This document shows positions 8,405 through 54,657 of a stretch of DNA of 64,000 nucleotides, piece after piece. Made by a program: the position numbers and the translations under genes. The notes beneath the pieces were generated by a model, which did no database searches, was not told where the DNA came from, and was given only the letters and a program-made list of their open reading frames with translations. This stretch comes from an uncultured Bacteroidales bacterium (GTDB lineage Bacteria; Bacteroidota; Bacteroidia; Bacteroidales; VadinHA17). Positions within the stretch are counted from its first letter, which is position 1; each line of letters opens with the position of its first letter. The DNA lies in NCBI GenBank assembly GCA_963840965.1, contig CAWJAW010000009.1, positions 256,487 to 320,486 of the forward strand, written 5' to 3'.

Positions 8405-8414
8405 TTAAGATGAG

Positions 8415-18122: not shown

Positions 18123-18292
18123 AAATTCTTGTTTTTCTAGCTTCTTTTTCCTTCCTTTGCCCCTCAGAATATGGTGGAGAAATTTGAGCTGATTGCAACC
18201 ACAGGAAAAAATGCTAAAATGCCTCTGATCCCGTCTTTCCAGTCAACCATTATTCCCACCAAATGTTGATATGTTAACTTAACAATTAAGAT

Positions 18293-23600: not shown

Positions 23601-24343
23601 CAGTTCAGCCCGATGCTGAAGAGCGGAAAATGAGACACCGACACCAGGAAGGCCTGGAGAGTCTGTCCGGTGAGTGTTCTTCCGCTTGCGTCGGTAATCG
23701 TTCCGGAAACCATCACCGGAAGACGGATTCCCCTCTCCTCGAAGATTGTCTCAATGGCATACAGGGCTGCCTTGCAGTTCAGTACATCAAAGATCGTCTC
23801 AACCATCAGGATATGTACCCCGCCGTCAATAAGTCCTGCTGCCTGTTCCCTGTAGGCCTCGGCAAGCTGGTCAAAACTGACCAGTCTGGCACCAGGATCA
23901 TTCACATCCGACGACATCGAGGCCGTGCGGTTCGTTGGACCGAGGGTTCCGACAATGAAATGGAAAGCGGGCTTCTCCGAGTTCTCAAAAAGGGTTATAG
24001 CCTTTTCAGCAAGCTTCGCCGAATAGAAATTCATATCATAAACCTGATCCTCCATGCCGTAGTCGGCCATCGATATCCTGTTTGAATTGAAGGTGTTCGT
24101 GGTGATCAGGTCGGCACCTGCTTCAAGATAGCCCTTGTGAATCTCCAGGATAACATCAGGCTTCGTTATTGAAAGGATGTCATTGTTCCCTTTCAGCGGA
24201 AGGGGATGATCCCTGAATTTTTCACCCCGGTAATCGGCCTCCTGAAGCTTGTACTTCTGAATCATCGTACCCATGGCTCCGTCGAGAACCAGGATTCGGT
24301 TGGTGATCAGGGATTCGAGTTTTTGTTTCATAATTAATTTCAT
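20680..24343 (-). pseudogene. metH: cobalamin-dependent methionine synthase, frame-broken
   Basis: The Hcy-binding N-terminal ORF (23453..24343, ..[20 protein letters not shown]) continues in another frame as [26 protein letters not shown] (20680..23538). The break is one extra nucleotide near 23467-23468. Pterin, B12 (DVHDIGKN) and AdoMet-activation domains are present. Confidence 0.9.
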
Positions 24344-27201: not shown

Positions 27202-27294
27202 TTACTGCCCCATGCCCATAGGCATGAGCGGCTTTTGAAGGTCCTGACTGATCTGAAAAAAATGTTTCATTGTCATAGTGTTCATTTTTATCAT
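27202..27294 (-). CDS. candidate Met-rich upstream ORF (30 codons)
   Basis: MIKMNTMTMKHFFQISQDLQKPLMPMGMGQ has 7 Met in 30 residues. The first AUG lies inside the 3' strand of riboswitch helix P1 (GAUGAUAA). There is no homology evidence. Confidence 0.3.
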   Translation of the reverse strand: MIKMNTMTMKHFFQISQDLQKPLMPMGMGQ

Positions 27295-27397
27295 CTCCCG
27301 TTTTGCCGGGATTAGGTTTTGGCACCTTTCTCCCGATTGGCCGGGATTGGTTGCCAGGGTTTCACAGAGCCTAATCTCTCCGCCCTTCTTAATAAAA
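27286..27397 (-). promoter_or_regulatory. SAM-I (S-box) riboswitch
   Basis: The minus strand reads UUAUUAAGAAGGGCGGAGAGAUUAGGCUCUGUGAAACCCUGGCAACC-AAUCCCGGCCAAUCGGGAGAAA-GGUGCCAAAACCUAA-UCCCGGCAAAACGGGA-GAUGAUAA. This matches the S-box core (GGnGGAGnGA, UGAAaCCC, GGCAACC, GGUGCYAA) with P1-P4 pairings. It lies upstream of metY-hom-metH-metF. Confidence 0.8.
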
Positions 27398-27439
27398 ATC
27401 AAACACCCTTAAATGGAAGGAATATTTGATTTGTGGCCA

Positions 27440-29688: not shown

Positions 29689-30272
29689 AAACGGATCCCC
29701 TCCTCGGAGGGGTTGGGGGTGGGTTAAGACAATGTGAGAGTGAGAGCGGGAGTGAGTAGAAAAACGTAATGGTAAACGGATCCCCTCCTCGGAGGGGTAG
29801 GGGTGGGTTAATAGTTATTATATAAATAATTATATGTCAAAAAAACGCAAAATCATCCCATATAATCCGGAACTTAAAGACCTGGCAAGTCAGCTCAGAA
29901 AGAATATGACTCTTTCAGAGGTTTTGCTCTGGATCGAGCTGAAAAATAAACAAATTCTTGGTTATGATTTTGACCGTCAGATTCCAATTGGGGATTACAT
30001 TGTCGATTTTTATTGCAAGGATTTAAGTCTGGCCGTTGAGATTGACGGGGATACTCATATATTCAAGTACGACGATGATGAGGTGAGGCAAAAGAATCTG
30101 GAGAAACTGGGTGTTCATTTTCTGAGATTTGAGGATATTGAGGTAAAAAAGAATATGGGGAATGTTCTGAGGGTTATTGAGGATTGGATTGAAAGAAGAA
30201 GACCCACCCCTACCCCTCCAAAGGAGGGGATCCTTAGAGAACCCACACCGAGCCCTCCAAAGGAGGGGATCC
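29689..30272 (+). mobile_element. DUF559-endonuclease mini-cassette bounded by duplicated terminal inverted repeats
   Basis: Left side: AAACGGATCCCCTCCTCGGAGGGGTWGGGGTGGGTTAA x2 (29689-29727, 29774-29811). Right side: the inverse copies ACCCACMCCKASCCCTCCAAAGGAGGGGATCC x2 (30202-30233, 30241-30272). The DUF559 ORF lies between them. Confidence 0.55.
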
Positions 30273-31795
30273 TTAGAGGACATATTTCTGCACCTGTTTT
30301 TGTTGGAAAACTTGCCATTGGCGGCACAAATCCTATCCGTATTCAGTCAATGACCAACACCGACACTCTCGACACCAAAGCCTCCGTTGCACAATGCATC
30401 AGAATAATTGAAGCCGGTGCCGACCTGGTGCGCCTTACTGCCCAGGGGATGAGGGAGGCGGCTTATCTTGCAAACATTAAAGCGGAACTGAGGAAGGCCG
30501 GATTTGAGACACCGCTTGTTGCGGATATTCATTTCAATCCCTCGGCCGCTGAACTTGCAGCAAGTATTGTCGAAAAGGTAAGGGTTAATCCGGGTAACTA
30601 TGCCGACAAGAGAGCATCATTCATAAAAGTGGAGTTCTCCGAACAGGAATACCGCGAGGAACTCGAAAGGATACACAAAAGGATATTGCCGCTTATCAAC
30701 ATATGCCACGAACACGGTACGGCTGTAAGGATAGGGGTCAATCACGGTTCACTGTCCGACAGGATAATGACCCGCTATGGCAACACCCCCGAGGGGATGG
30801 CAGTGTCGGCAATGGAATTCATAAGAATATTCCGGGCGGAGAATTTTCATAAGCTGGTACTGTCGATGAAATCGAGCGATACCGGCATAATGATAAAGTC
30901 TACCCACCGTTTGGTTGAGATGATGAAGGAGGAAGGATTCGCGTATCCTCTTCACCTGGGAGTGACCGAGGCAGGCGAAGGTGAGGATGGAAGGATAAGA
31001 TCATCGGCCGGCATCGGAGCGCTGCTGGCTGAAGGTATTGGCGATACTATCAGGGTTTCGCTGTCGGAAGCTCCCGAGAAAGAGATACCGGTGGCAAGGG
31101 AAATCCTGAATTTCCTTGCAGGTTCAGCCGGACGGGTAACAGATCCTGACAGCATCCTTGATTTCAAAACACACACTAAGCCATATAAGCCGGAAGTGGT
31201 GACTAATAATGACGGCATGTTTTCAGGAGAAGAAAATCAATGTTATAACAATGTTATAACGTTGTCAAAAGACAGTTTACCGCCTCCAGATATATTTAAA
31301 TATGAAGATGTTATCCTGAACGGAGAATTCAACGAGGATAACCCGGAAAAGCTGGCAATCGACTCAGCCGCCCTTCTTGGAAGATACTTCATCACACGTC
31401 AGGCTGGCGGAATATGCATCACGAACAAGGGAAAAATCAAAGGAGACAAGCTGAAGGAGCTTTCATTTTCAATTCTGCAGGCAACCGGAGCAAGGATTAC
31501 AAGGGTGGTTTATCTGTCATGTCCCACCTGCGGCCGGACCAGGTTCGATCTTCAGGAGGCGGTGAGGGAGGTGAAGGCTGTAACCGGTCACCTGACAGGA
31601 CTGAAGATTGCAGTGATGGGATGCATAGTGAACGGTCCGGGCGAAATGGCCGATGCGGATTACGGATACGTTGGGGCGGGGAACGGGAAGGTGCATATCT
31701 ACCGGGGAACAACCCAGGTGTTAAAGAACATTCCGCAGGAATCGGCTGCTGAAGCTTTACTGGCTCTTATTGAGAATGATCAGAGAGCGACGTGA
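29834..31795 (+). CDS. ispG: in-frame fusion ORF: N-terminal DUF559 (Vsr-fold endonuclease-like) domain + 4-hydroxy-3-methylbut-2-enyl diphosphate synthase
   Basis: Residues 1-125 (LRKNMTLSEVLLWIELKNKQILGYDFDRQIPIGDYIVDFYCKDLSLAVEIDGDTH..LRFEDIEV) are DUF559. The linker PTPTPPKEGILREPTPSPPKEGILRG is a translated repeat. Then IGGTNPIRIQSMTNTDT...GCIVNGPGEMADADYGYVG is IspG with the long Bacteroidota-type insert. There is no ATG/GTG/TTG between the repeat and the IspG core. Confidence 0.85.
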   Translation: MSKKRKIIPYNPELKDLASQLRKNMTLSEVLLWIELKNKQILGYDFDRQIPIGDYIVDFYCKDLSLAVEIDGDTHIFKYDDDEVRQKNLEKLGVHFLRFEDIEVKKNMGNVLRVIEDWIERRRPTPTPPKEGILREPTPSPPKEGILRGHISAPVFVGKLAIGGTNPIRIQSMTNTDTLDTKASVAQCIRIIEAGADLVRLTAQGMREAAYLANIKAELRKAGFETPLVADIHFNPSAAELAASIVEKVRVNPGNYADKRASFIKVEFSEQEYREELERIHKRILPLINICHEHGTAVRIGVNHGSLSDRIMTRYGNTPEGMAVSAMEFIRIFRAENFHKLVLSMKSSDTGIMIKSTHRLVEMMKEEGFAYPLHLGVTEAGEGEDGRIRSSAGIGALLAEGIGDTIRVSLSEAPEKEIPVAREILNFLAGSAGRVTDPDSILDFKTHTKPYKPEVVTNNDGMFSGEENQCYNNVITLSKDSLPPPDIFKYEDVILNGEFNEDNPEKLAIDSAALLGRYFITRQAGGICITNKGKIKGDKLKELSFSILQATGARITRVVYLSCPTCGRTRFDLQEAVREVKAVTGHLTGLKIAVMGCIVNGPGEMADADYGYVGAGNGKVHIYRGTTQVLKNIPQESAAEALLALIENDQRAT

Positions 31796-33925: not shown

Positions 33926-33988
33926 AATATTTGGTTTTCGCGAAGGTAAGAAAACGAACCGTTTATTTTGTACATTTGCCCTATAGTT

Positions 33989-34285
33989 ATGAATAAGTTG
34001 ACGACAAACGGACCGGTATATTCCCACTCCCCGAACATAGTCACCCGGAAGACGGGAAGCGAGTATGTGCTTATACCAGTGGCGAATAACATCGCCGATA
34101 TGAACAGTGTCTATACCCTTAACGAATCGGGAGCCTTTATCTGGGAACTGATCGACGGGAAGAGAAGCACCGGCGAAATAGTCGATGCGCTGGTCGAAGA
34201 ATACAATGTCGACAGGGGTGTGGCTGAGTCAGACGTCAATTCTTTCATGAGTGACATGAGTAAATATCTCATCATCAACATTTAG
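33989..34285 (+). CDS. PqqD-family protein (RiPP recognition element-like)
   Basis: ..VTRKTGSEYVLIPVAN..VYTLNESGAFIWELIDGKRSTGEIVDALVEEYNVDRGVAESDVNSFMSDM is the canonical PqqD/RRE pattern. About 98 aa from the ATG at 33989. Confidence 0.8.
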   Translation: MNKLTTNGPVYSHSPNIVTRKTGSEYVLIPVANNIADMNSVYTLNESGAFIWELIDGKRSTGEIVDALVEEYNVDRGVAESDVNSFMSDMSKYLIINI

Positions 34286-34398
34286 AATAATATTTTCCCC
34301 TTCCCCACGTTATCCTTCAGAGATTACGTTTAACTGAAAAACAATCTGAAGTGTATAACAGTGTAGGTTACCGGGAAAGCAGCGTGGGATTTTACAAC

Positions 34399-35310
34399 AT
34401 GCTGAAACAGCCAGCGATAAGAATGAGAGACTATACTCTTAACATAGCCGGATACAATATCAGGCTCGAGTCCCAGGAAGACGGACCCGATCTGATCCCT
34501 TCTCCCAGGTTTCTGCAGAGTATTGTCAGAGCCCTTGACTATGATGTCCTTATCAGGGTACATCATGGAAGGATCAGACCCGACGAGGATGCCGAAAGGC
34601 TTTTTGTGGCTCCCTATGTTGTTGAGGTAAAAGGCTATAAGGTAACAAAAAGTGATAATTTCTGGAGTGTTTACAAGCAGAACGGCGATCTTCTTATAAT
34701 TACAAATTTCCCCGATTCTCCCGGTAAAAAGGCAACTTTGAAACTGTCACTTGCATTGAGAGAATGGGATCTTTATATAGAGAATGCAGGCCGGAGCACC
34801 GATCCGATGGAATACCCGCTCGACGGACTAATTCTTTATTATCTCACGGCCATAAATGCCGACATTATGATCCATGCATCGGGAGTATCGTACAATGGCC
34901 GCGGCTACCTGTTCAGCGGGGTTTCAGGCAAAGGTAAGACAACAATGTCGTTATTGTGGGACAATATAGGCGCGCAGGTCATTCACGACGACAGGCTGAT
35001 AATAAGGAACACCGGCGGGATATACAGGATGCACAACACTCCCGTTTACAGGAATGATGTACCCCGGAGCGCTCCAATCGACAGGATCTTCCTTATCAGT
35101 CATGGCAATGAGAATGAAATGATTCAGATAAGGGAAGCATCAGCAGTCAGCATGGTAGTTGCCAACTGCATCCAGCATAATTACAGTCCGGATATGATAG
35201 CCCGCTTCCTTGGATCCATCTCGATGATGTGTTCGAAGGTTCCGGTGTCGACCCTTTCGTTTCGTCCCGACAGGAGCGTAATAGAATACATTCTCCGGAA
35301 TGACCAGTAA
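34399..35310 (+). CDS. HPr-kinase-like P-loop kinase (HprK C-terminal domain homologue)
   Basis: IHASGVSYNGRGYLFSGVSGKGKTTMSLLW...QVIHDDRLIIRN parallels the HprK catalytic core (lHG..v...G.GvLi.G.SG.GKS..al.L...GH.LvaDD). The ORF opens at 34351 (GTG). Confidence 0.7.
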   Translation: MLKQPAIRMRDYTLNIAGYNIRLESQEDGPDLIPSPRFLQSIVRALDYDVLIRVHHGRIRPDEDAERLFVAPYVVEVKGYKVTKSDNFWSVYKQNGDLLIITNFPDSPGKKATLKLSLALREWDLYIENAGRSTDPMEYPLDGLILYYLTAINADIMIHASGVSYNGRGYLFSGVSGKGKTTMSLLWDNIGAQVIHDDRLIIRNTGGIYRMHNTPVYRNDVPRSAPIDRIFLISHGNENEMIQIREASAVSMVVANCIQHNYSPDMIARFLGSISMMCSKVPVSTLSFRPDRSVIEYILRNDQ

Positions 35311-35764
35311 CAGACTGTCCCATACCGTACTCAATGATATCGGATTCATGCTTCTTGCCGAAGGAAAGACCATCAGGGTCAGGGCCGATGGCATGAGCAT
35401 GCACCCTTCAATAAAATCTGGATCTGTAATCTTTATCGAACCATACGAACCGGGAGCAAAACCACGTCCGGGCGAGATAATCGCATGGAAAAAAGACATG
35501 GGGATCGTTGTGCACCGGCTGGTAAATGCTTACATGCAGAAGATGCAAATGCATTACGTTACCCGCGGCGACAGCTGTATGGGTGAGGATGATCCGATAG
35601 TCTTTGAACAGATTGCGGGGAAGGTTGTCAGGATCGAATATCCTGAAGGGAAACAGGTGCCTGCTCATAAATATGCAGGTATCAGGCCGAATTACAGACT
35701 AAACAGGATATTGGTACGGATAATTTCGCAAATTTACAGGGTGAAGAGAGTTTTTGATCCCTGA
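35300..35764 (+). CDS. S24/S26-fold serine peptidase (SipW/archaeal-type signal-peptidase-like)
   Basis: ADGMSMHPSIKSGSVIFIEP (GxSMxP nucleophile motif), GEIIAW..GIVVHRLV (His), and YVTRGDSCMGEDDP..IAGKVV. Overlaps the kinase ORF by 11 nt. Confidence 0.7.
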   Translation: MTSNRLSHTVLNDIGFMLLAEGKTIRVRADGMSMHPSIKSGSVIFIEPYEPGAKPRPGEIIAWKKDMGIVVHRLVNAYMQKMQMHYVTRGDSCMGEDDPIVFEQIAGKVVRIEYPEGKQVPAHKYAGIRPNYRLNRILVRIISQIYRVKRVFDP

Positions 35765-35880
35765 CCCCCCTTCCCCCAGGAAGACTACCCCCCAACCCCC
35801 CCAGGGGGGGGCTCACTCCCTGGACCCGACCCCCCTTGGGGGGCAGGGGGTAGGGGGCCAGGGGTAGGGTCTTGGGGGTA
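35765..35880. repeat. GC-rich palindrome cluster inside the PqqD-to-ABC gene string
   Basis: CCCCCCCAGGGGGGGG, and CCCCCCTTGGGGGGCAGGGGGTA (35830-35852), which is the exact inverse of 24382-24404. Confidence 0.85.
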
Positions 35881-35906
35881 AAAAACTCTATGGTAACCAT
35901 TTCTTG

Positions 35907-37688
35907 ATGAACGGAAAGATCAAACTATTCAGGAAAGCCCTGGCCCTTGTCTATGACAGCGCGCCCGGGTGGGCCACGGTGAACATCGTGATCTCGGTCC
36001 TGCAGAGCATTTTTCCCCTTGCCCTTGTCTGGCTGATTAAGCTTCTGATAGATGAAATTACCAATGCTGCTCAAGCCGGCACGGGAGCGGTCAATATAGT
36101 GCCGATGGTGATCGCAGTGGTAGTCGTTTACTTCCTGGATGAGGTATGTTCCGATTCGGGCAACTTTGTGCGCAGCAAGCAGTCGGTGAAACTCGAGGGA
36201 TATATGTACAACCTGCTTCACTCGAAAGCTGTGAGGCTCGACCTTATCAACTTTGAGCATCCCGGATATTACGACTGTCTGTCGAGGGCAACATCCGAAG
36301 CTCCATGGAGGCCAAACAACATACTGAACAACATAGTATCGATGTTCCGGGGATTGCTGTCGCTGCTGCTGATGGCCGGACTTCTGTTCACCCTGCACTG
36401 GGGGGTTGCCCTGATGCTGCTGGTGGTGAACATTCCGGGGATATGGCTCAGGCTGCACTATGCCGATATTCTTTATAACTTTCAGAGGGAACAGACACCC
36501 GAAGCCAGAAAGTCGGCGTATTTCAGCTGGCTCCTTACCGGCGACAGGCCTTCAAGAGAGATCAGGCTGTTCGGGTTGGGTAACTACTTCATCTCGCTGT
36601 TTAAGAAATCCTTTAACAGGCAGAAGGAAGAAGAACTGAACATCCTCAGAAAAAGGACAGTTATTGAACTGATATCGGATGTGGTCAAGGCTTCCGCAAT
36701 ACTTGTACTGCTCCTGGTGATAGCCAGGCATACGGTTTCGGGAGATCTCAGTCTTGGACAGATGGCCATGTTCCTGCTGGCATTCAGGCAGGGTATGACC
36801 TACATAAAGGATCTGTTCGTTTCGGTGGCCGGGCTTTATGAAGACGGGCTGTATATAGGCGACACATTCGAATTCCTCGATCTGAAGGAAAGCGTAGTGG
36901 CCAATCCGCCGGTCACGGTTCCCACTGAGCTGAAATCGGAGATCAAAGTTGAAGATATTTCGTTCACCTATCCCGGGAATGACTATGCAACCTTAAACAA
37001 GGTTTCGTTTGAGATAAAGAAGGGTGAGATAATTGCGCTGGTTGGTCCCAACGGAGCCGGGAAAAGCACCCTTGTGAGGCTGCTCACCCGTCTTTACGAT
37101 CCGGATACAGGCAGTGTGAGATGGGACGGAAATGATATTAAAACAATGGATCCTGATCAGTTCAGACTTTTCTTTTCGGTTGTTTTTCAGGATTTCATGC
37201 TATATAACCTTCCGGCCGGGGAGAACATCAGGATGGGAAATATTGATGCACCGGACCCGGATGAAAAGATCAGGAAGGCTGCCGCAAACTCGGGTGTTCA
37301 TGAACTTCTGAACAATCTGCCGAAGGGCTACGACACCACAATCGGGACCCTCTTTGACGACAGCAGGGAGCTGAGCTGGGGCGAATGGCAAAAGATAGCG
37401 CTTGCGAGGGCCTTGTTCCGCGAGTCGCCGGTTCTGATCCTCGATGAACCCTCCAGTTCGCTCGATGCGGATACGGAGCATGAGATATTTAGCCGTTTCA
37501 GGGAGATAGTCAACGGACGTACCTCCATTCTTATAACTCACAGATTTACCAATGTAACCCTGGCTGACAGGATAATTGTGCTGGAGCACGGAAGCATAAC
37601 GGAAACCGGATCGCATGAGGAGTTGATGAAGATGAAGGGGAGATATTGGGAGATGTTTAGGAAGCAGGCGGGTAGGCATGGGGCGTGA
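35907..37688 (+). CDS. ABC exporter, fused permease/ATPase (MsbA/McjD-like architecture)
   Basis: Six-TM N-terminal half. Walker A GPNGAGKST, signature LSWGEWQKIALARA, Walker B ILDEPSSSLD. About 593 aa. Confidence 0.85.
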   Translation: MNGKIKLFRKALALVYDSAPGWATVNIVISVLQSIFPLALVWLIKLLIDEITNAAQAGTGAVNIVPMVIAVVVVYFLDEVCSDSGNFVRSKQSVKLEGYMYNLLHSKAVRLDLINFEHPGYYDCLSRATSEAPWRPNNILNNIVSMFRGLLSLLLMAGLLFTLHWGVALMLLVVNIPGIWLRLHYADILYNFQREQTPEARKSAYFSWLLTGDRPSREIRLFGLGNYFISLFKKSFNRQKEEELNILRKRTVIELISDVVKASAILVLLLVIARHTVSGDLSLGQMAMFLLAFRQGMTYIKDLFVSVAGLYEDGLYIGDTFEFLDLKESVVANPPVTVPTELKSEIKVEDISFTYPGNDYATLNKVSFEIKKGEIIALVGPNGAGKSTLVRLLTRLYDPDTGSVRWDGNDIKTMDPDQFRLFFSVVFQDFMLYNLPAGENIRMGNIDAPDPDEKIRKAAANSGVHELLNNLPKGYDTTIGTLFDDSRELSWGEWQKIALARALFRESPVLILDEPSSSLDADTEHEIFSRFREIVNGRTSILITHRFTNVTLADRIIVLEHGSITETGSHEELMKMKGRYWEMFRKQAGRHGA

Positions 37689-37875
37689 GGCGTGAGTCGT
37701 GAGGCGTGAGACGAAGGGACGAAGAGACGGAGGGACGAAGGGACGGCGTGAGTCGTGAGGCGTGAGGGAGTAAAGCCAGGCTCAGGGCTCAGGGCTCAGG
37801 GCGCAGGGTTCGGCTGAAGGGGAGATAACTCCGTGTTACTCTTTTTTTACTTCGTGCGACTCCGTGTTTAAACTC
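37682..37875. repeat. mosaic of 7-8-nt tandem arrays
   Basis: (GGCGTGAG/TCGTGAG)n, (ACGAAGGG/ACGGAGGG)n, GGCGTGAG again, (GGCTCAG)x3-4, then the AACTCCGTG..ACTCCGTGTTTAAAC module. The first unit supplies the ABC exporter's TGA stop. Confidence 0.9.
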
Positions 37876-38060
37876 CTGGATTTCATGGCAAAAAATTACC
37901 AGTATTCCTGCCGGTTTTGCAAAAAAGTAGCAATTCTGCCTAAAAATATTAACCCATAAAAAAAATTCTAAAAAAATTCTAAATTTTTTTGGTAAATTCC
38001 TGAATATTTGCTATGTTTAGTGTTGAAAGTCAGTGCGTGCTAATTTAAATTTTTTAGGTT

Positions 38061-38270
38061 ATGACAAGGATTTACAGAGAAAATCTGAAAGTCAGGATCC
38101 TAAAGCTGGCCGATATGCAAAGTACCGGTTCCCCTGATGATCTTGCATTCAGATTCAGTGTCAGTAAAAGAACGGTCAAGCGGATAGTAAACGAGATCCG
38201 CGGTGAAGGCTTTAACATAAGATACAGTCCGTCAAAGAAGTCGTATGTGACGGAGAAGGAATGTGTTTAG
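38061..38270 (+). CDS. small HTH-domain protein
   Basis: 69 aa. LAFRFSVSKRTVKRIVNEIRGEGFNI resembles an HTH_11/DeoR-N type helix-turn-helix. Sits between two repeat mosaics. Confidence 0.55.
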   Translation: MTRIYRENLKVRILKLADMQSTGSPDDLAFRFSVSKRTVKRIVNEIRGEGFNIRYSPSKKSYVTEKECV

Positions 38271-39311: not shown

Positions 39312-39752
39312 TCAGGTCTGACTATTATACTGGGTGAAGCCGTGTTGCCTGATATACTCCTCGCACTCCTGATCCCAGGTTTTCGATCTGTGATGAGATT
39401 CCTGATTACGGATATAGTTCCTTACTCTGTTGATGTGTGATTCGCTGATCGAGGCGGCATAGTATTCGTCGGCCCACTCGAATCTGGTTTTGATAAGCTG
39501 GATCTTGTTTATCCAATGTGCGGATTCCCCCTTGATCAATTGCATCACTTTCGACAGCGCCTGATCACAGCCGAGCATAAGCAGACAGTGAAGGTGTTCG
39601 GTGTGTCCGTTCAGGAAATCAATATGTATGTCTTTCGAAGCTGCATTGGTACGGATGTGGTTTATCACTTCATACTTCCTTCCGGGATAGAGGCAAGGTA
39701 CCCGGTTTTTGGTGCCCCACACGCAGTGGATCCAGATTTTTACGTAGGACAT
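39312..39752 (-). CDS. IS200-like Y1 (HUH) transposase / REP-associated tyrosine transposase-like
   Basis: IWIHCVWGTKNR.., HUH motif in GHTEHLHCLL, catalytic Tyr context RVRNYIRNQESHH. 146 aa. No IS605-type tnpB partner. Confidence 0.85.
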   Translation of the reverse strand: MSYVKIWIHCVWGTKNRVPCLYPGRKYEVINHIRTNAASKDIHIDFLNGHTEHLHCLLMLGCDQALSKVMQLIKGESAHWINKIQLIKTRFEWADEYYAASISESHINRVRNYIRNQESHHRSKTWDQECEEYIRQHGFTQYNSQT

Positions 39753-39884
39753 GAGGATTGGGGTTAGTAGTTATACTGGTGGTGAGCTTCGTATGTCTGC
39801 GCCCCGCCCCCGCTGGGCAGCCGGGGTTGGGCAGCAGGGGTCAGATAGCATATGATGGGCAGCAGGGCAGATGGCAGACATGGT

Positions 39885-40469
39885 TCAGAAGCTAATATTG
39901 AGACCCGCTCTGGCAGTGGCGACGACGATCCCCCGGGTGTCGTTCTGGTAGACGCCTTTGAGGCTGATGCCGCTTCGTGGACCGGTCTTCATGATGGCTC
40001 CGAGGGAGACGGTGTAACCCGGAGCCGCGACGATATAATCACCGTGGGATCCTCCTCCAAGCTGAAGCTCTGTAGAATGGTATTGAACGTCAGGACCGGT
40101 GGCAACTACCCAGTGATATCTCCTTACATAGAATCCCAGTCCGGCCTCCAGATCGAAAACATCCGTCCTGACGGGATAGAAATAACCTGTCAGATCGAGA
40201 CCGGCGGCCTTTATATCCTTAAGTAAATCTATATCCACGTCATTATTGAAAAAACTGTAGAAACCTATCGAAGGGGCGACACTGAACCAGGAGGTCAGCG
40301 GCTGGATAAACTCGTTGTAATAGCAGAATCCGTCAATATCGCCCGATCCGGTAAAGGCATAGCCGGTTTCAAGGCGTAGGGAATTCATGCCAAATACACC
40401 TTCCTGCGAAATAGCAGATGCTGCCGGTAAAAACAGCATTAAAGTCACGAAATAGGATCTGATTTTCAT
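39885..40469 (-). CDS. outer-membrane beta-barrel protein
   Basis: Signal peptide MKIRSYFVTLMLFLPAASAISQ, alternating beta-strand pattern, C-terminal ..AGLNISF. Confidence 0.7.
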   Translation of the reverse strand: MKIRSYFVTLMLFLPAASAISQEGVFGMNSLRLETGYAFTGSGDIDGFCYYNEFIQPLTSWFSVAPSIGFYSFFNNDVDIDLLKDIKAAGLDLTGYFYPVRTDVFDLEAGLGFYVRRYHWVVATGPDVQYHSTELQLGGGSHGDYIVAAPGYTVSLGAIMKTGPRSGISLKGVYQNDTRGIVVATARAGLNISF

Positions 40470-40513
40470 TTTTTAAGAGTTAAGAATATGATTATGTTAA
40501 CATTATGTCCATA

Positions 40514-40700
40514 TTAAAACCTGAATCCAAATATCGGGGTTATCGAAAGACCTTCAAAGCCAAGAGCCCAGATAACATTCGAATCTGCCCTCAGGCCAAG
40601 GTAGAAATTGCTTTCGAACTGGTAGTAGTAATCGAGACAGATGGTGAAGCCGATTTCGTAAAAATCTCACTATAATCTAGTATTGATAATAAGTACCATC
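40514..40700 (-). pseudogene. C-terminal fragment of an OMP beta-barrel gene
   Basis: The minus frame reads ..YEIGFTICLDYYYQFESNFYLGLRADSNVIWALGFEGLSITPIFGFRF* with no start codon. It has a terminal aromatic residue like the neighbouring OMP. Confidence 0.35.
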
Positions 40701-40828
40701 ATTATATGCTTCAGCAATGTCAGGCCTTAAAAAACAATCTCTTTTAAGTTTGAATCCCACACCAGGTTCAATAAAATTGTTGCCCTTTAATTTTACCTGT
40801 CTCGAAAAAACCATATCGACCATTTGCC

Positions 40829-41104
40829 TTATTTCAAATGTCTTAAATCCTCAAAAGCTCCACCGTCCATATTGTCCATTCCATTGTTGCCATTGATAAT
40901 CTTGCCGTTAATGATAATGCCTGTTTTAAATTTATAACCACCTTCCAACCAATAGATTGGCCCATCTACAGCAGTAAATAACATCCATATAATATCCAGC
41001 TCCTGATCTGAATTGTAAACCTTTTCTCCTGTGAATTGCATATGACAGTAAAGGAGAGTAATAAAATGCTTATAAATTCCTTTTTCATACTGTAATCTGA
41101 TCAT
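40829..41104 (-). CDS. hypothetical ORF in AT-rich region (possibly a gene remnant)
   Basis: 91 aa with Gly/Asn-rich repeats (GIIINGKIINGNNG). Protein-like reading continues past the stop in another frame (NGRYGFFETGKIKG). Confidence 0.25.
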   Translation of the reverse strand: MIRLQYEKGIYKHFITLLYCHMQFTGEKVYNSDQELDIIWMLFTAVDGPIYWLEGGYKFKTGIIINGKIINGNNGMDNMDGGAFEDLRHLK

Positions 41105-42318
41105 TCATAAATTTTAACTTCAAACAACTGCATATACTGGTAAACAGATATTTATAAGGTGCTCGAAAATCAATTGCAGAATTTTACAAGGTAAATTCAT
41201 AATTTAAAACACAGGCCTGTACCAACAAAAAAGAAACTTCCATTATTCATATCATGTATCCTTGAATTAAGCTGAATACCATGTTTTTGAACAAATAAAA
41301 TGTAATATCTATGCCTGCGTGGTAACCGAAATGGTTATTACGAACATAATGATAATCATTAAAAATATATGTAAAGCTTCTTCCTCAAGATCATATTCAT
41401 ATTCAATGTTTTTTATGAAAGAAGCTTTTTGCTCTTGCCATAGATGCACCAGCAATGACATCCATTGTAATCCATTTCTTTTCAATTGGCCTGAGGAAAC
41501 TGAAATACTGCACCTAAATTCATTAATGACATTTCTGGGTATTTATATCTCAAGCGATCCTCCTATTTCACTATATGGAACTTCAAAGACAGATAATATT
41601 GAGAATTGTAAATGTCCAAATAGAACCTTTACTCCATACCACGATAAATGAAAATGAAGATTCTCCAGAAAACAGATTACCGCCTCCATAAGTATCGGAC
41701 AGATCTATTGAATAATTGAATAGAAACACTAATTTTTAGTTGAGTCAGTAGCCTTTGTAGATTCGACATTGGTTAACACAAAAAATCGAATAATATTGTT
41801 ACATTTTAATAAATAGTTCTTCATTTTCTATCATTTTTAAAACCATCCCTTTAGTTACTATCTTCACCAAAGGGATGGATAGCATATAAATTACTTAATA
41901 GAGAATCCTTAAAGGAGTTGTCAATTTAAAGACTTAGCACACGTTTTCCTTACAGTCCAACCATCTTTTACTTCATCACCTGGTTCAGGATTTGAATTTG
42001 TTCTCATAAACCAATCTCTATCCCATTCAGACAAGTCCTAAAAAATCCCCACCATAAGACACTTTGAATGTTGCAGTTACAGTTGGACTTAAGATTATCT
42101 GTTTTATAACCGACGATGTGCTTATACTAGCTTTCTTTGACAGTGTCATATTCATAAACTAGACATACACTGTTGTATTTTTTCGGCTCTCCAATTAGTA
42201 TCCCAACTAATATTAACAGTATACCAACCACCATTTGAATGAACAGTCCAATCATTAATAGCAGCTTTTGCATATGATCTAGGATAACTTAATTGGAATT
42301 ACTGTTGTAAATTTGCCG

Positions 42319-43074
42319 TTAACTGCTCCAGTTGTATAGATTATATTCTGGATAACCTCTAGATATTCTCAATTCTAGATCTCCTTCGAACAGACCACCA
42401 CAATAATCAGCACATCTTACTTTACCAACTTTTACTTCATATATTGGATCACCTTTTACACCAGCTATGGCATCAGTTAAGATTCCCTTAGTATCACCAT
42501 CCTCATCCTTCGGCATGACCAGCAGCACCATATTTTTATCAGCGTACTCTTCATTTACTCTTACCTGAACCATCTTTCTTCCCTCGAAGCGGTAGCCGGT
42601 GTTTTCAACATCGTTGTCGATGGGATGGGCGGCGACGGTGAAGGAAAGGGTACCTTTCGGGTAGAAGCTCGAAGGATAGGGGCAGTAGATATAGCAGTCA
42701 TTCTTTGAAAGGAAGTTAATCAGATCACTGGTATTGCCCTTGGACTCCGATGAGGTGCATCCTTTAATAAAGCCGGTCCGGAGGTTTCTGAATGATCCGG
42801 CGACACTCTTGGATTCATCCATAAGGTCGCTGAAGGGCAGGCTGTAGCATTCACGGTCTTCCCTTGAAAGGGAAACAAGTTCGTTAAGCACGGCTTCATC
42901 CTGTATAACATCGGCAAGGATTTGTGCTGCCTGATCAAGATTGGTCTTGAGAAGCGTTTCAGAATCGGTGAGGGCTCTCCTGCCGATCAGATCCTGATTA
43001 ATGGGTCCTGAATCATATTTTTCGCAGCTTGCCAGAGTAAGGCAAACAGCTATAACACAGACAATCTTTTTCAT
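42319..43074 (-). CDS. hypothetical lipoprotein
   Basis: MKKIVCVIAVCLTLASCEKYDSG lipobox (ORF opens at 43101). Protein-like reading continues beyond the stop at 42319. Confidence 0.6.
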   Translation of the reverse strand: MKKIVCVIAVCLTLASCEKYDSGPINQDLIGRRALTDSETLLKTNLDQAAQILADVIQDEAVLNELVSLSREDRECYSLPFSDLMDESKSVAGSFRNLRTGFIKGCTSSESKGNTSDLINFLSKNDCYIYCPYPSSFYPKGTLSFTVAAHPIDNDVENTGYRFEGRKMVQVRVNEEYADKNMVLLVMPKDEDGDTKGILTDAIAGVKGDPIYEVKVGKVRCADYCGGLFEGDLELRISRGYPEYNLYNWSS

Positions 43075-43466
43075 TTTAGAAAAATGTTTTGAATTGAACA
43101 TTTGGGTTATAAGCCCTTTGTTATATTTAAGGTTGCGACCTGTGGGGTAAGATCCCGGCGGATTGGCCGCTTTATCCCCGGGAGATGAGTCAGTTCTGTT
43201 TCATAGGCACGAGGTTTTACATGCAGTGAGACATTATGTTTATTCCACAAACAACATTAATTCAGTTTAAAATCAACCGCACCGTACTCCCTTTCACTGT
43301 ATTGCAATAGCAATATTAAAATGCGCCGGGGCCAGAATAAAATTTTTTTGCAATTATTTTTCGAAAAAATGAAAAAAATTTTCCGCGGGGGTATATATAA
43401 TAAAAAGGTATGGTTTGAAACACGAGGGGGAAGGGTATGAGGTATGAGGCGTGAGGCGTGAACCAC

Positions 43467-43592
43467 CTTCGCTAAAACCTTCGCTAAAGCTACGGTGTTC
43501 AAAGAAAGCTACGGCGGTCGAAGGGCGTGAAGGCGAAGAAGAAGAAGTTTCTCGCAGATTTGCGCAGAGGAAAACCGCAGATTTCCGCAGAG
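43467..43592. repeat. dispersed composite element, inverse copy of 18022-18122
   Basis: CTTCGCTAAAACCTTCGCTAAAGCTACGGTGTTCAAAGAAAGCTACG ... CTCGCAGATTTGCGCAGAGGAAAACCGCAGATTTCCGCAGAG. Confidence 0.85.
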
Positions 43593-43625
43593 GGCTTAAC
43601 CACGGTGTAACACGGAGTGTCAAAG

Positions 43626-43768
43626 AGATGCGTAAATCCCGAGCGCAGTTTCGGGGCAAGTCATCGAACTCATAAAACTCCGTGCGACTCCGCGGTTAAA
43701 TTATTGATTATAAATGAATAACTTCGTGTTACTCCGTTCCTAACTCCGTGCGACTCCGTGGTTAAACC
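43626..43768 (+). repeat. ~143-bp element, left direct repeat flanking HEPN-MNT
   Basis: GATGCGTAAATCCCGAGCGCAGTTTCGGGGCAAGTCA..CATAAAACTCCGTG..ATTATTGA..AACTCCGTGCGACTCCGTGGTTAAAC. Roughly 80-85% identical by eye to 44743-44886. Confidence 0.8.
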
Positions 43769-43885
43769 AATGGGCAAAGCCCTTCCGTGGTTAAGTCCCT
43801 GTGATTCCGTGGTTAAAGCAAGGGACAGGGGGTGAAGCTAAGCAAAAAACTGTGTGGGTGGGGAAAGGCAATTACATACGCCATC

Positions 43886-44296
43886 CTACTTACCTGTATT
43901 ATTTTTCTGGTCTATCAGCAATTCTATCTTTTCGATAAGTATTGCGACAGGCTGGAAAAGCGGCATTGTTTTTTCCTGATCAAAATCAAAGAAATCACCG
44001 TAGTCTCCCTTTTGTCTCCAGTCAAAGAGTTCAACGAAAAGCCTGCCTGATTCCTTATCAATCAATCCAGTTTTAATAAAATGAAGAGTGAATTGATGCT
44101 TCAGTCCTGCATGTGAGCTTGCATAAATATCAAATTTATAAAGAAGAGCTGATATAGCATAGAAGCAAGAATAATATAGTCTGTTGATTGAAGAATTCCA
44201 ATGTCCGTTTGTTGCAAGCAGTTTAGCAGCCTCCAGAGTCTCCCTGGAGATTTTCAAACGATAGCTGATGTAATCCGGATTTATTGATCGGGTCAT
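43886..44296 (-). CDS. HEPN domain protein (toxin-like partner of MNT)
   Basis: 136 aa, helical. ..INRLYYSCFYAISALL.. and WRQKGDYGD, an HEPN R-x4-6-(H/Y)-type motif. Overlaps the upstream NTase by 4 nt. Confidence 0.8.
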   Translation of the reverse strand: MTRSINPDYISYRLKISRETLEAAKLLATNGHWNSSINRLYYSCFYAISALLYKFDIYASSHAGLKHQFTLHFIKTGLIDKESGRLFVELFDWRQKGDYGDFFDFDQEKTMPLFQPVAILIEKIELLIDQKNNTGK

Positions 44297-44610
44297 AACC
44301 TGACACCTTCTCTTTTAATAGTCCGATAGAGAGGAGTTACCTTATGTAAGCTATTCCAGACCTGTTTCTGGTAAACGAAAGTAGAAAATACTTCACCTGT
44401 CTCGATCTCAATTTCAAAAAGACTATTCCGAAATGATCTTTCGATTTCCGTCGATACAGCATATTGTGTCAGGATCAGAATGTCCCAGTCAGATTCATTC
44501 CTGGCATCACCCCTGGCCCGCGAACCAAAAAGTATGACCTGAGCTTTAGGATCAATGATCTTAATGCTGCTTTTAATCCGCTTTAATATTTCGTCGTTTT
44601 TGAGGGTCAT
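44293..44610 (-). CDS. minimal nucleotidyltransferase (MNT) domain protein
   Basis: ILFGSRARGDARNESDWDILIL matches the GSxxRG...DxD pol-beta NTase motif. 105 aa. Confidence 0.85.
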   Translation of the reverse strand: MTLKNDEILKRIKSSIKIIDPKAQVILFGSRARGDARNESDWDILILTQYAVSTEIERSFRNSLFEIEIETGEVFSTFVYQKQVWNSLHKVTPLYRTIKREGVRL

Positions 44611-44742
44611 AATGCAAATCTACAAAATAAATGGATTGGCTGAATGGATGAAACCACTTATCGCTGATTTTAAGGCGACAAGGCGTGAAAGAGGAGAGGT
44701 CGTGCAGGTCATGCAGGCGCAGGTCAAGCAGGTCGTGTTAAA

Positions 44743-44886
44743 GTGATGCGTAAACCCCGAGCGTAGCGTCGGGGCAAGTCACCGGATTCATAAAACTCCG
44801 TGTTACTCCACAGATAAATTATTGAATATCAATAATTAACTCCGTGTTCCTCCTTTCTTAACTCCGTGCGACTCCGTGGTTAACTC
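44743..44886 (+). repeat. ~143-bp element, right direct repeat flanking HEPN-MNT
   Basis: GTGATGCGTAAACCCCGAGCGTAGCGTCGGGGCAAGTCA..CATAAAACTCCGTG..ATTATTGA..AACTCCGTGCGACTCCGTGGTTAAC. Confidence 0.8.
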
Positions 44887-44915
44887 CTTGCGACTCCGTG
44901 GTTAAAGAACCCCCT

Positions 44916-45635
44916 TCAAGGGGCAAAGGTTCTTACAACTGCATCCTTAATTGAGATTTTACCGGCGCCAAGCGAATTGTCCGATCCCAGGAGAAAATCA
45001 TTTGCAATTGTTGTGATGGATCTGCCTAACTGATCAATATCGACCGGCCTTATATGCCAGTCAGATTTCTGAAAAAGAAAAACCGGGAAGCTTTTAATAC
45101 GTTGTTCCACGTCAATCTCGTTGATTATTGCCTTGTTTTTAGCTTCGCCGAAAACCTCCATCCAGTTAAAGCTGTAGTTCTGAGATATCATGCATATATC
45201 AAAGACATCCTTTGGTTCATCGCGGCTGACAACAGCTGTAAGCTTATTTGTCAGTATATTAAGAGGTGTATCTATAAAACCATATTCATATTTATTGGCG
45301 ACACCACACCTGTAAGCAGTATCATTTACAAATTCAATCTTAAGCGCTCCTTCTTCGTCTTCAATATAAAAACGAACAAAATCCTCGTAAATAGTGCTTT
45401 GTTCCTTTAGCAGCGAAACTTGTCTTGCCAGGACTGTCTCAATATCCTTTACAAGAACATGAAACTCATGACTTTTATTCAGAAAAAAATACAGATCCTC
45501 ACTGAAGCGGTGGTTGAGATAAAATCTCCCCAGTGCAGTCCCGCCGGTCAGGTAAAAGTTACCAATTACCGGCTTCAAAGCCTGAAGCACCTTATCCTGC
45601 GTCCGGTAAAGCCTCCTGTAATCTTTTCCTGACAT
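44916..45635 (-). CDS. AbiEii/AbiGii-family nucleotidyltransferase toxin-like protein
   Basis: FYLTGGTALGRFYLNHRFSEDLYFF matches the family's N-terminal motif (GGTAL...RxSxDlDf) as recalled. Confidence 0.75.
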   Translation of the reverse strand: MSGKDYRRLYRTQDKVLQALKPVIGNFYLTGGTALGRFYLNHRFSEDLYFFLNKSHEFHVLVKDIETVLARQVSLLKEQSTIYEDFVRFYIEDEEGALKIEFVNDTAYRCGVANKYEYGFIDTPLNILTNKLTAVVSRDEPKDVFDICMISQNYSFNWMEVFGEAKNKAIINEIDVEQRIKSFPVFLFQKSDWHIRPVDIDQLGRSITTIANDFLLGSDNSLGAGKISIKDAVVRTFAP

Positions 45636-45897
45636 ACTTGTATTTTTTACGGACTGATTCCGGCCATAACGATGCGATAACCTTCTCAGTCATCATCTCC
45701 TTAACCTTTTCAACAGGTACAAGTTGGATGACTGTGAACCACGGTAAACCCGTCAGCATTCTGGTAAATAACTGCTCACGGCTTAAATGACCGGCTTCTT
45801 TAATCCTGCCGTCAAGCAAGCCATCCAATTCGGCGGGTGATATGGAGTAATCCCACATGACGGATTTGAGAATTTTATGACGCTGCCGTTTATCCAT
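45592..45897 (-). CDS. small upstream partner ORF (putative antitoxin)
   Basis: 101 aa, directly upstream of and overlapping the AbiEii-like ORF by 44 nt. No family recognised. Confidence 0.5.
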   Translation of the reverse strand: MDKRQRHKILKSVMWDYSISPAELDGLLDGRIKEAGHLSREQLFTRMLTGLPWFTVIQLVPVEKVKEMMTEKVIASLWPESVRKKYKYVRKRLQEALPDAG

Positions 45898-46168
45898 TCA
45901 TTAAAATGCTGCATTTCAACAAATATACTCAATATTTCGCATTTACGGGAAGGAGGAAAGGCAAGAAGGCGTGAGGATTAAGGCGTGAAGCGTGCTCCGT
46001 GTTACAAATGGTTAAACTCTTGCAATTCATATCGTTTCAGGGCAAATAATTATCGTTTTACGATATCCGGGTTATTGTAAGCAATGCCAGACGGGGCGTT
46101 GCCCCGCCCTATACTATTCCAGGCCTACGGCCTGAGTAAGAGATGGAAAATTCTGCAGCCCTGTCAGC

Positions 46169-46221: not shown

Positions 46222-46535
46222 TTACTGCAGCAGCGTCACGTTTCCGACTATCTTGAACGGCTTCCCGTCGGCATATTTGCCTTCGACGTACCAGACATAC
46301 ACTCCCTGCGGACAGAGCTGGCCCTTGTAATAACCGTTCCACGGAATGTTGATATCCCTGCTTTCGAATATCAGCACGCCAAGTCTGTTGAAGATCTGAA
46401 GCTTGTAGTTGATCACCTTCTGCCTGATCGGCGGATAGAAGAACTGGTCTACCTCGGTGCCGCCCGTCGGGAGGTCGCTCCTTTCGATCGGACCGGTCTT
46501 GTTCGGGGTAAACACCGTCGCAAACCTGATCTCCC
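46222..46535 (-). other. T9SS type-B C-terminal sorting domain (gliding-motility-associated CTD) coding segment
   Basis: ..FTPNKTG...FYPPIRQKVINYKLQIFNRLGVLIFESRDINIPWNGYYKGQLCPQGVYVWYVEGKYADGKPFKIVGNVTLLQ* matches the CHU_C/type-B CTD pattern as recalled. Confidence 0.75.
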
Positions 46536-51693: not shown

Positions 51694-51712
51694 GGTAGTC
51701 GTAATGACTCCG

Positions 51713-54527: not shown

Positions 54528-54657
54528 TCTGACATCGTATGTTCCCGGGGCCAGGTTACTGAAATTGCCTGTCAGATGCCAGCTGCCACCTGCATTGACT
54601 GTGTATTCATAGGTACCATAGCCGCCTGTTGCTCCGCTGACGGTTATGGTACCATTG

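Follow-up and report, generated by a model that had tools for sequence, protein, structure and literature searches.

Lasso peptide biosynthesis provides the nearest described parallels to the gene cassette analyzed here. HprK-like kinases and nucleotidyltransferases are known to tailor lasso precursors bound by a recognition element (RRE) for peptides that are made by the ribosome and modified after translation (RiPPs), the paeninodin (PadeA/C/B1/B2/K/D) and pseudomycoidin (PsmK/PsmN) clusters being the closest systems (PMC8498205). The cassette under study spans positions 33989–37688 of a 64-kb stretch of DNA from an uncultured Bacteroidales bacterium (the window) and consists, according to the open reading frame (ORF) list of the window, of four co-directional ORFs on the plus strand, encoding a PqqD-family protein, a kinase-like protein, a peptidase, and an ATP-binding cassette (ABC) protein. 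With the phosphorylated and phosphoglycosylated lasso clusters it shares a stand-alone PqqD-type RRE, a kinase of the HprK superfamily, and an ABC exporter, with a nucleotidyltransferase being found in more distant members of its clade and a YxxPxI motif resembling YxxPxL of lasso leaders in the candidate precursors of its relatives (PMC10368454). In contrast to these clusters, it lacks the Asn-synthase-like cyclase and the B2 protease, its presumed leader peptidase is a serine enzyme of the Sec11/SipW type, and its kinase is annotated as a member of the ScmC family, not of the models built on the HprK-related kinases A and B. Furthermore, Ser is rare as the last residue of the candidate peptides, a layout suited to ring formation is not evident in them, and their genes are paired with genes for cargo proteins of the type IX secretion system (T9SS). 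An RRE-dependent pathway is usually recognized by a modifying enzyme specific to its class together with a known type of leader peptidase, while here the lasso accessory set is split from the cyclase and joined to an enzyme of the signal peptidase fold. We read the cassette as a novel form of RRE-dependent peptide maturation and export, and consider it rather likely that its four genes constitute a single operon, in which a peptide is matured in a leader-dependent manner and exported without a macrocyclase.

A further parallel is the SynChlorMet (SCM) cassette, which combines ScmC and the PqqD-family protein ScmD with two radical S-adenosylmethionine (SAM)/SPASM enzymes (TIGR04248–TIGR04251 in the TIGRFAMs annotation); we know of no precursor identified for that cassette either. 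Both systems pair a protein annotated as ScmC (PF27840) with a chaperone of the PqqD family. The present cassette, however, features a peptidase and an exporter instead of radical SAM/SPASM enzymes, and its scores for TIGR04249 and TIGR04248 amounted to 30–32 bits (cut-offs 125 and 100, respectively). No radical SAM gene was detected in or next to the cassette, either in the window or in its relatives, the sole radical SAM ORF of the window being located 25 kb away. In peptidase-containing ABC transporters (PCATs; C39-ABC bacteriocin and NHLP exporters, TIGR01193 and TIGR03796), a leader peptidase is fused N-terminally to the ABC protein, as is likewise the case in relatives of the cassette, which implies that cleavage is coupled to export. 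The fusions of the relatives differ from PCATs in carrying a serine domain of the S26/S24 clan rather than a C39 cysteine domain and in the lack of a double-glycine leader; in the window, the peptidase is a separate protein.

In a full-text literature search with incomplete coverage, no paper was found on this gene set, on the peptide family described below, or on PqqD in connection with type IX secretion. Queries for SynChlorMet and for the combination of PqqD, HPr kinase, and signal peptidase, subject to the same incomplete coverage, also gave no paper, and PF14907 led solely to an unrelated phosphonate study. The first-pass annotation of the window, made from the sequence alone, had not recognized the architecture as a described RiPP class, and the literature searched contained no matching description.

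Protein Families, Catalytic Residues, and Fusions

The PqqD product has an exact counterpart at NCBI, a 'PqqD family protein' of a Bacteroidales metagenome-assembled genome, and matched PF05402 with 72.8 bits (cut-off 23.4). Its top NCBIfam match was lasso_PqqD_Bac (43 bits, below the cut-off of 80); a second lasso B1 model gave 32 bits (cut-off 70). All of the closest specific models, namely lasso B1, PqqD proper, ScmD, and GeoRSP, remained below their cut-offs. The β-strand/α1 stretch 'EYVLIPV..NIADMNSVYTLNE.GAFIWE.IDG' of the window protein recurs in the PqqD proteins of the peptide-linked cassettes introduced below. The protein is presumed to act as a leader-peptide-binding chaperone.

Curated models matched the kinase-like product only below threshold (HprK_rel_B with 31 bits, ScmC 30, HprK_rel_A 20, HprK 13.5, and PEPCK 17). 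In detail, TIGR00679 reached 13.5 bits against a cut-off of 240, PF01293 16.9 against 26.5, and TIGR04352, the kinase marker of the HPr-rel-A system, and TIGR04355 19.8 and 31.4, respectively, each against 200. TIGR04353, representing the PqqD protein of the HPr-rel-A system, was not among the matches at E ≤ 0.1, and PF07475 was not reported for the protein in the Pfam scan. The precomputed annotation of the 303-aa product and its homologues, however, includes PF27840 (ScmC), and the kinase family counts 9,686 representative clusters at E ≤ 1e-3. Judged by its 30.4 bits on the ScmC equivalog model TIGR04249 (cut-off 125), the window kinase is not the SCM equivalog.

Within an alignment of 138 sequences, His151, Gly166, Gly169, Gly171, Lys172, and Asp189-Asp190-Arg191 were invariant, the glycines and the lysine being part of the Walker A motif 'GVSGKGKT' (G166, G169, G171, and K172). 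An AlphaFold model built from this alignment (pLDDT 93.6, pTM 0.89) retrieved ATP-dependent phosphoenolpyruvate carboxykinases (PEPCKs) and HprK/P as top PDB matches in Foldseek with a probability of 1.00 (E 3.6e-6 for PEPCK; E 3e-5 to 1e-4 and a TM score on the target of ~0.5 for HprK/P), while a sequence-only PDB profile search was marginal, with HprK at E ~0.6. We conclude from the modeled fold and its motifs that the protein is a P-loop phosphotransferase of the PEPCK/HprK superfamily, but not an HprK orthologue. It resembles HprK/P and ATP-dependent PEPCK in the P-loop fold, Walker A, and the DD(R) motif; it differs from them in scores far under cut-off, in another N-terminal β-rich domain, and in the absence of an HPr or phosphotransferase system context.

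The peptidase matched PF00717 (26.2 bits, cut-off 23.3) and the archaeal/ER-type signal peptidase I model TIGR02228 (57.1 bits, cut-off 51.85), with the SipW model remaining below its cut-off at 39.5 bits. A profile of 30 sequences matched human SEC11C (E 1.4e-9) and SEC11A (E 1.2e-8), and the alignment with these proteins covers the catalytic motifs 'SM.P', 'vHR', and 'GD..D'. Residues G31, S33, M34, H72, R73, G90, D91, and D97 are invariant. As no membrane anchor was found (the maximum of the 19-residue Kyte-Doolittle window being 0.75 at a threshold of 1.6), the peptidase is a cytoplasmic enzyme. Thus, in spite of its likeness to SipW, Sec11, and archaeal signal peptidase I in score and in the Ser/His/Asp motifs, it differs from signal peptidase I in the missing anchor, in its cytoplasmic RiPP-type partners, and in a substrate that is presumed to be a leader peptide rather than a Sec signal peptide. 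By these features it is not functionally a Sec signal peptidase, and it is presumed to be the leader peptidase of the pathway.

The fourth protein contains both ABC_tran (PF00005, 114.9 bits) and ABC_membrane (PF00664, 38.9 bits), has its hydrophobic segments confined to residues 22–283, and showed no peptidase domain in the Pfam scan. Its best NCBIfam match was of the MsbA type, under the equivalog cut-off. By its domain content, the protein is a half-transporter (transmembrane domain plus ATPase) of the MsbA/McjD-like exporter type.

Single-chain fusions connect these functions in relatives. Kinase and peptidase are fused in at least nine representative clusters (50% identity) and in locus L057, and peptidase and ABC protein form single chains of ~745 aa, with the catalytic residues kept, in four distant cassettes (L088, L089, L091, and L093). 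Through its ABC part, the fused peptidase-ABC protein reached a TIGR03796 score of 249 bits, and it is laid out like the C39-ABC bacteriocin exporters, with a serine peptidase replacing the cysteine one. Both types of fusion indicate functional coupling of the components and represent an independent line of evidence.

These results agree with the first-pass annotation in its description of four co-directional genes, including the kinase/peptidase overlap of exactly 11 nt and the coordinates. Its four assignments were also borne out: a PqqD-type module (well above the PF05402 cut-off, with peptide binding being presumed), an HprK-like kinase (by the Foldseek match and the conserved Walker A and DDR motifs), a SipW-like Ser/His peptidase (by invariant Ser33, His72-Arg73, and Asp91/Asp97), and an exporter of the McjD/MsbA type with both domains present. 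The alignment check proposed for the kinase gave invariant Walker A, His151, and Asp189-Asp190-Arg191 residues across the 138 sequences. Among the profile searches that it had suggested, PF05402, Peptidase_S24/S26, and the ABC families were recovered, TIGR04352/TIGR04355 matched far below their cut-offs, and PF07475 was not reported. Its view that a signal-peptidase-fold enzyme stands in the position of B2 holds as well, this peptidase being conserved and fused to the kinase or the exporter in relatives.

Conservation of the Cassette and Selection

To a scan including one genome per species, 179 species contributed a relative of the kinase, and the best 80 of these 179 loci, all from uncultured Bacteroidales, were analyzed. 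The order cysS-ispG-rnr (minus strand)-pqqD-kinase-peptidase-ABC was kept over the 80 loci, while kinase identity ranged from 97% down to 56%. Counting presence only where the contig reached far enough, PqqD was found in 75 of 75 loci, the peptidase in 73 of 76, and the ABC gene in 65 of 67. Pairwise ratios of nonsynonymous to synonymous substitution rates (dN/dS, ω) against five relatives (dS 0.4–2.4) were 0.05–0.07 for the kinase, 0.04–0.08 for the ABC protein, 0.06–0.14 for PqqD, and 0.10–0.28 for the peptidase, compared to 0.06–0.10 for the neighboring cysS and ispG. Kinase, ABC protein, and PqqD are accordingly under purifying selection on par with cysS and ispG. The conserved order and the low ω values indicate that the cassette is functional and vertically inherited, and neither a mobile island nor decaying.

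In 26 more distant loci of the clade, the ABC gene is followed by a gene encoding an NTP_transf_5 nucleotidyltransferase (390 aa; PF14907, E 3.8e-41), of which no trace was found in the window, where the gap behind the ABC gene holds simple repeats. This difference, together with the lack of a precursor, would fit a decaying remnant, i.e., a lineage that lost the nucleotidyltransferase and the precursor and is heading toward pseudogenes. Such a fate appears highly improbable, however, since all four ORFs are intact, their catalytic residues are invariant, and the ω values over the given dS range, with kinase, ABC protein, and PqqD behaving like cysS and ispG, argue strongly against it.

Beyond this clade, six distant cassettes (kinase 27–40% identical), retrieved by way of the kinase, were identified in Paludibacter, Tenuifilaceae, and other Bacteroidota; in all of them pqqD lies directly before the kinase gene, and no cyclase was found beside any of the six. 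The quartet thus recurs in distant lineages amid unrelated neighbors. One could still suppose that the four genes are not one system and are merely held together by vertical synteny in a stable housekeeping region, with the ABC protein serving as a general lipid or drug exporter: the locus lies amid cysS, ispG, rnr, and the met operon, synteny of the whole region is conserved, and the best ABC models are MsbA-like. This appears quite unlikely in view of the wholly different neighbors of the gene set in the distant lineages, the kinase-peptidase and peptidase-ABC fusions, and the overlap of the kinase and peptidase genes. The co-occurrence of the four families in other genomes, which the first-pass annotation had named as a check, was found both within the clade, in the counts given above, and in the distant lineages, and the four-gene arrangement is not a chance neighborhood.

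Absence of a Cyclase, a B2 Protease, and a Precursor Gene from the Window

A scan of the main ORFs over the whole window revealed no Asn-synthase-like cyclase (PF00733-type), no transglutaminase-like B2 protease (PF13471-type), and no other RiPP maturase. Likewise, no cyclase/B2 pair was present in ~90 Pfam-annotated neighborhoods of close and distant cassettes. The first-pass annotation had noted the absence of both enzymes at the locus and had asked whether a lasso cyclase/B2 pair lies beside relatives; the window scan and the Pfam-annotated relatives agree that none does. Insertions between rnr and pqqD, which occur in some relatives, code for secreted proteins, one being a GH9 enzyme and the others lacking annotation, and were rejected as maturases for this reason.

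That no precursor is visible, as also stated previously, was confirmed by searching the gaps, the 64-kb window, and ±10 kb around the 80 related cassettes. The gaps of the operon contain no small ORF of plausible precursor size, and the pqqD-kinase gap in particular has no out-of-frame ATG-initiated ORF. Between rnr and pqqD (64–65 nt in close relatives as well), the gap is too short to leave room for a precursor ORF. When the small ORFs around the 80 cassettes were clustered all against all, the groups obtained were confined to NTP_transf_5 and to antisense shadows of the rnr and pqqD genes. The long pqqD-kinase gaps of some relatives were rejected as precursor sites, since they hold a PD-(D/E)XK_3 gene (129 aa; PF13366, E 3.8e-37; L048:5872-6262, L066, L068, and L076) and repeat elements; degraded copies of this gene were seen in L082 and L087.

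A 69-aa helix-turn-helix (HTH) protein is encoded downstream of the cassette in 38 of 48 related loci, restricted to the clade of the window, and was not found beside distant or peptide-linked cassettes. It was rejected as a precursor because of its HTH fold, its clade-specific distribution, and its absence near distant cassettes. The protein is a possible regulator, its membership in the system being uncertain; longer paralogues were observed near the cassette in some relatives (L079). PADLOC gave no match for PqqD, the kinase, the peptidase, or the HTH protein, and only generic ATPase matches for the ABC protein. An anti-phage defence function was rejected, as no specific PADLOC component was matched.

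Candidate Precursor Peptides and Their T9SS Cargo

Small ORFs of 50–61 aa were detected within 9 kb of four of the six distant cassettes and are immediately adjacent in three of them. L088, with two copies, and L089 have them directly before pqqD; in L092 the ORF separates pqqD from the kinase gene, and in L093 it is located 3.4 kb upstream of pqqD. The search for small ORFs near homologous clusters, as proposed in the first-pass annotation, delivered a peptide family at the distant cassettes, but none in the window or within ±10 kb of the 80 cassettes of its clade. This family comprises 412 database proteins at E ≤ 0.1. The best 120 of the 412 measure 50–74 aa, mostly 57–63 aa, and none of them carries a Pfam domain; no NCBIfam model was found for the family either. 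Its consensus reads MKT.IENTEKRTYsSPQIERIKLDNEISLVLES..PP.EP..W....E.FNNDPFKTNiG.

The N-terminal half of the candidate peptides features the motif YxxPxI, whereas in lasso leaders the B1 RRE reads YxxPxL at positions −17 to −12 (PMC10368454). The leader would end in 'EIS(-2)L(-1)' according to the lasso spacing, or after 'LES' according to the −3/−1 rule of signal peptidases. With this motif, a Ser at the position equivalent to lasso Thr(-2), a lasso B1 model as top NCBIfam match of PqqD, and a set of HprK-like kinase, nucleotidyltransferase, and ABC exporter known as paeninodin and pseudomycoidin accessories, the cassette might be considered the B1/kinase/exporter half of a split lasso pathway, with the cyclase, B2, and the precursor encoded elsewhere in the genome. 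We regard this as very unlikely: neither an Asn-synthase-like nor a transglutaminase-like gene was seen among the scanned ORFs of the window or in the annotated neighborhoods, the role of B2 is filled by a dedicated conserved peptidase that is fused to the kinase or the exporter, every lasso-specific model remained under its cut-off, and the cores, by inspection of the alignment, begin with V/A/T-L-E-S and offer no acidic residue for a ring of 7–9 residues.

Scanning metagenomes for the peptide gave 78 loci, and 65 of 70 peptide genes were located downstream of a gene for a large protein with a T9SS sorting domain, at a median distance of 43 nt. These cargo proteins have variable N-termini and a common C-terminal region of ~550 aa (25–47% identical), for which no Pfam or NCBIfam model was found except for the terminal sorting domain. 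The cargo-peptide pairs are often duplicated. The cassette is also present in 4 of the 14 peptide loci having at least 5 kb on both sides, and one contig harbors cargo-peptide pairs both at the cassette and at a distance of 65 kb (L098 and L111), so that one cassette seems to serve several dispersed precursors. NTP_transf_5 directly follows the peptide gene in L113 and L165, and L113 unites all six components; two cargo-peptide pairs, NTP_transf_5, the ABC protein, the peptidase, the kinase, and PqqD are encoded there. As most peptide copies lie away from a cassette, their absence near the window cassette does not show that the genome is devoid of a precursor.

The T9SS cargo genes also bear on a possible, less supported reading, in which the system is directed at proteins and processes an N- or C-terminal extension of a larger secreted protein, such as T9SS cargo or a lipoprotein. 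The signal-peptidase clan of the peptidase, the genetic tie to cargo genes in other lineages, and the large T9SS adhesin genes located 8–25 kb away in the window are in line with it. Nevertheless, the peptidase is soluble and lacks a membrane anchor, the recurring neighbor of the cassette is a small peptide with an RRE-type leader motif, and neither the window nor any of the 80 related loci contains a homologue of the conserved cargo region, which makes the protein-directed reading unlikely compared to maturation of a peptide.

Proposed Pathway and Its Substrate

In the proposed peptide maturation pathway, PqqD would bind the leader of a ribosomally made peptide, presumably of the YxxPxI type. 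The ScmC-family P-loop kinase would then modify the peptide with ATP, most likely by phosphorylation of a hydroxyl group, as suggested by its fold and motifs. The soluble Sec11/SipW-type serine peptidase is predicted to cut off the leader in the cytoplasm, and the ABC half-transporter to carry the product through the inner membrane into the periplasm. NTP_transf_5 may, in relatives, decorate the phosphate, comparable to PsmN in pseudomycoidin (PMC8498205). With the peptide gene lying outside the operon, the cassette would serve in trans at least one precursor whose gene is located elsewhere in the genome.

By homology, the best substrate candidate appears to be the peptide family found beside the distant cassettes. 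The window cassette is placed in the same family of systems by the common PqqD strand/helix-1 stretch, the kinase and peptidase active sites, and the optional NTP_transf_5, which more distant members of its clade have in common with some peptide-linked cassettes. We tentatively propose, as a possibility that falls short of a likelihood, that the cassette and the peptide family together represent an undescribed RiPP class in Bacteroidota. Its products would be linear peptides without a lasso fold, made with a YxxPxI leader and a PqqD RRE, modified by the kinase with or without NTP_transf_5, processed by an S26-type peptidase that is often fused to the exporter ('S26-PCAT'), and paired with T9SS cargo, with the lineage of the window acting in trans.

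Several observations weigh against the proposed maturation pathway. Six-frame searches of the window and the 80 loci ±10 kb with hidden Markov models of the full-length peptide and of its leader alone, and with a regular expression for the leader, gave no candidate peptide, and the C-terminal cargo region has no homologue over the same range. The kinases of the peptide-linked cassettes are only ~35–40% and their PqqD proteins 30–41% identical to those of the window, so that transfer of the substrate holds at the level of the family only. Moreover, none of the best 120 of the 412 peptide matches came from a contig equal in length to one of the large, in several cases megabase-size contigs bearing cassettes of the window clade, a weak hint that this clade may use a different or divergent substrate. 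The chemistry is affected as well: the kinase remained under the cut-off of every characterized kinase model, so that a reaction other than Ser/Thr phosphorylation is possible, and 64 of the best 120 peptides end in Gly but only 2 in Ser.

Known lasso kinases phosphorylate a C-terminal Ser (PMC8498205). Since the candidate peptides end mostly in Gly, this residue is not the target here; conserved internal Ser/Thr residues (EISL, LES, W-S-K, and K-T) are the alternatives. The likeness to paeninodin drawn in the first-pass annotation holds for the RRE, the kinase, and the exporter, whereas phosphorylation of a C-terminal Ser does not fit the candidate peptides. Its scheme of recognition, phosphorylation, cleavage, and export of a linear peptide gains support from the domains, the fusions, and the leader-bearing peptides at distant cassettes.

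Organization of the Locus and Other Features of the Window

The coordinates of the cassette, its gaps, and the peptide and cargo genes of related loci are compiled in Table 1. The 303-aa start of the kinase gene is the one chosen by gene callers; alternative starts are GTG 34351 and ATG 34423, where conservation within the family sets in. In many relatives, the peptidase and ABC genes are separated by 8–50 nt or overlap, and the palindromic element between them in the window is probably an insertion outside the system. Tandem repeats of 7–8 nt (GGCGTGA / GGGACGAA / GGCTCAG) run after the ABC gene at window positions 37682–37810, and similar 'PPKGG'-coding repeat elements were observed in intergenic gaps of related loci.

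Table 1. Coordinates of the cassette and of associated features (window positions unless a locus is given)
Feature	Coordinates	Strand	Description
rnr-pqqD gap	33926..33988		Divergent, rnr (RNase R) on minus strand; ~64 nt; presumed operon promoter and 5′ untranslated region
pqqD	33989..34285	+	98-aa PqqD-family RiPP recognition element
Kinase gene	34399..35310	+	303 aa from ATG 34399
Peptidase gene	35300..35764	+	154 aa; Sec11/SipW-type (S26/S24 clan) serine peptidase
Peptidase-ABC gap element	35765..35900		G+C-rich palindrome; inverted repeats with 21-nt arms
ABC gene	35907..37688	+	593 aa; ATG 35907, mechanical start TTG 35904
Post-ABC gap	37689..38060		373-nt gap; short tandem repeats and A+T-rich promoter-like stretch
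HTH gene	38061..38270	+	69-aa HTH protein; weak HTH_11 and HTH_Tnp_4 matches
Candidate peptide ORFs	L088:5395-5574, 8373-8555; L089:8149-8322; L092:6741-6926; L093:3169-3321; also L094-L175		
Cargo C-terminal region	L088:3687-5369, 6679-8346; L094:8165-9844; L095:8297-9976		

The cassette is flanked by housekeeping genes on one side and by a low-GC island and T9SS adhesin genes on the other. On the upstream side, ispG and cysS follow beyond rnr. At 29834–30330 on the plus strand, the ispG ORF contains an in-frame N-terminal segment resembling a DUF559 endonuclease, behind which a 'PTPPKEGILR' repeat occurs in duplicate. Among relatives, L004 encodes the DUF559 part separately and L005 as a fusion, and L001 and L006 lack it. 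Two riboswitches were identified, namely an SAM riboswitch (S box, 70.7 bits) at 27285–27398 on the minus strand, upstream of the metY-hom-metH group, and an SAM-II long-loop riboswitch (50.8 bits) at 18168–18227 on the plus strand, upstream of the SAM synthetase gene (18293–19639). Methionine synthase (20680–24343, minus strand) is apparently split into two overlapping ORFs, one encoding the homocysteine S-methyltransferase part (296 aa; 23453–24343) and the other the remaining domains (952 aa; 20680–23538), which could reflect a true division of the gene or else a frameshift or an error of sequencing.

Downstream of the cassette, positions 39312–46000 contain genes of the mobile and toxin-antitoxin type, with a low GC content of 0.36–0.42 at 40–46 kb. 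Among these, an IS200-like Y1 transposase (39312–39752), a HEPN-domain protein (43886–44296), and an AbiEii-type nucleotidyltransferase toxin (44916–45635) are encoded on the minus strand; a 101-aa ORF upstream of the latter (45592–45897, minus strand) may encode the toxin partner. A run of very large genes for SprB-repeat, PKD, and CHU_C (T9SS) surface proteins extends over 46222–62983 on the minus strand, and none of these window genes resembled the cargo module associated with the candidate peptides.

Implications for Bacteroidota

If confirmed, the cassette would represent a new type of leader peptidase and, in its relatives, a new peptidase-ABC architecture, and it would provide a function for the uncharacterized ScmC family with its ~9,700 representative clusters (E ≤ 0.001). 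A role in physiology, and not that of an antibiotic made by particular strains, is indicated by the purifying selection, the constant place on the chromosome, and the conservation of the candidate core. The pairing of peptide and cargo genes suggests that, after export, the peptide serves the cargo as a partner, ligand, or signal in the periplasm or at the surface, and is not an antibiotic. The coupling of peptide and T9SS cargo would constitute a concrete and testable link between RiPP-like pathways and type IX secretion in Bacteroidota.

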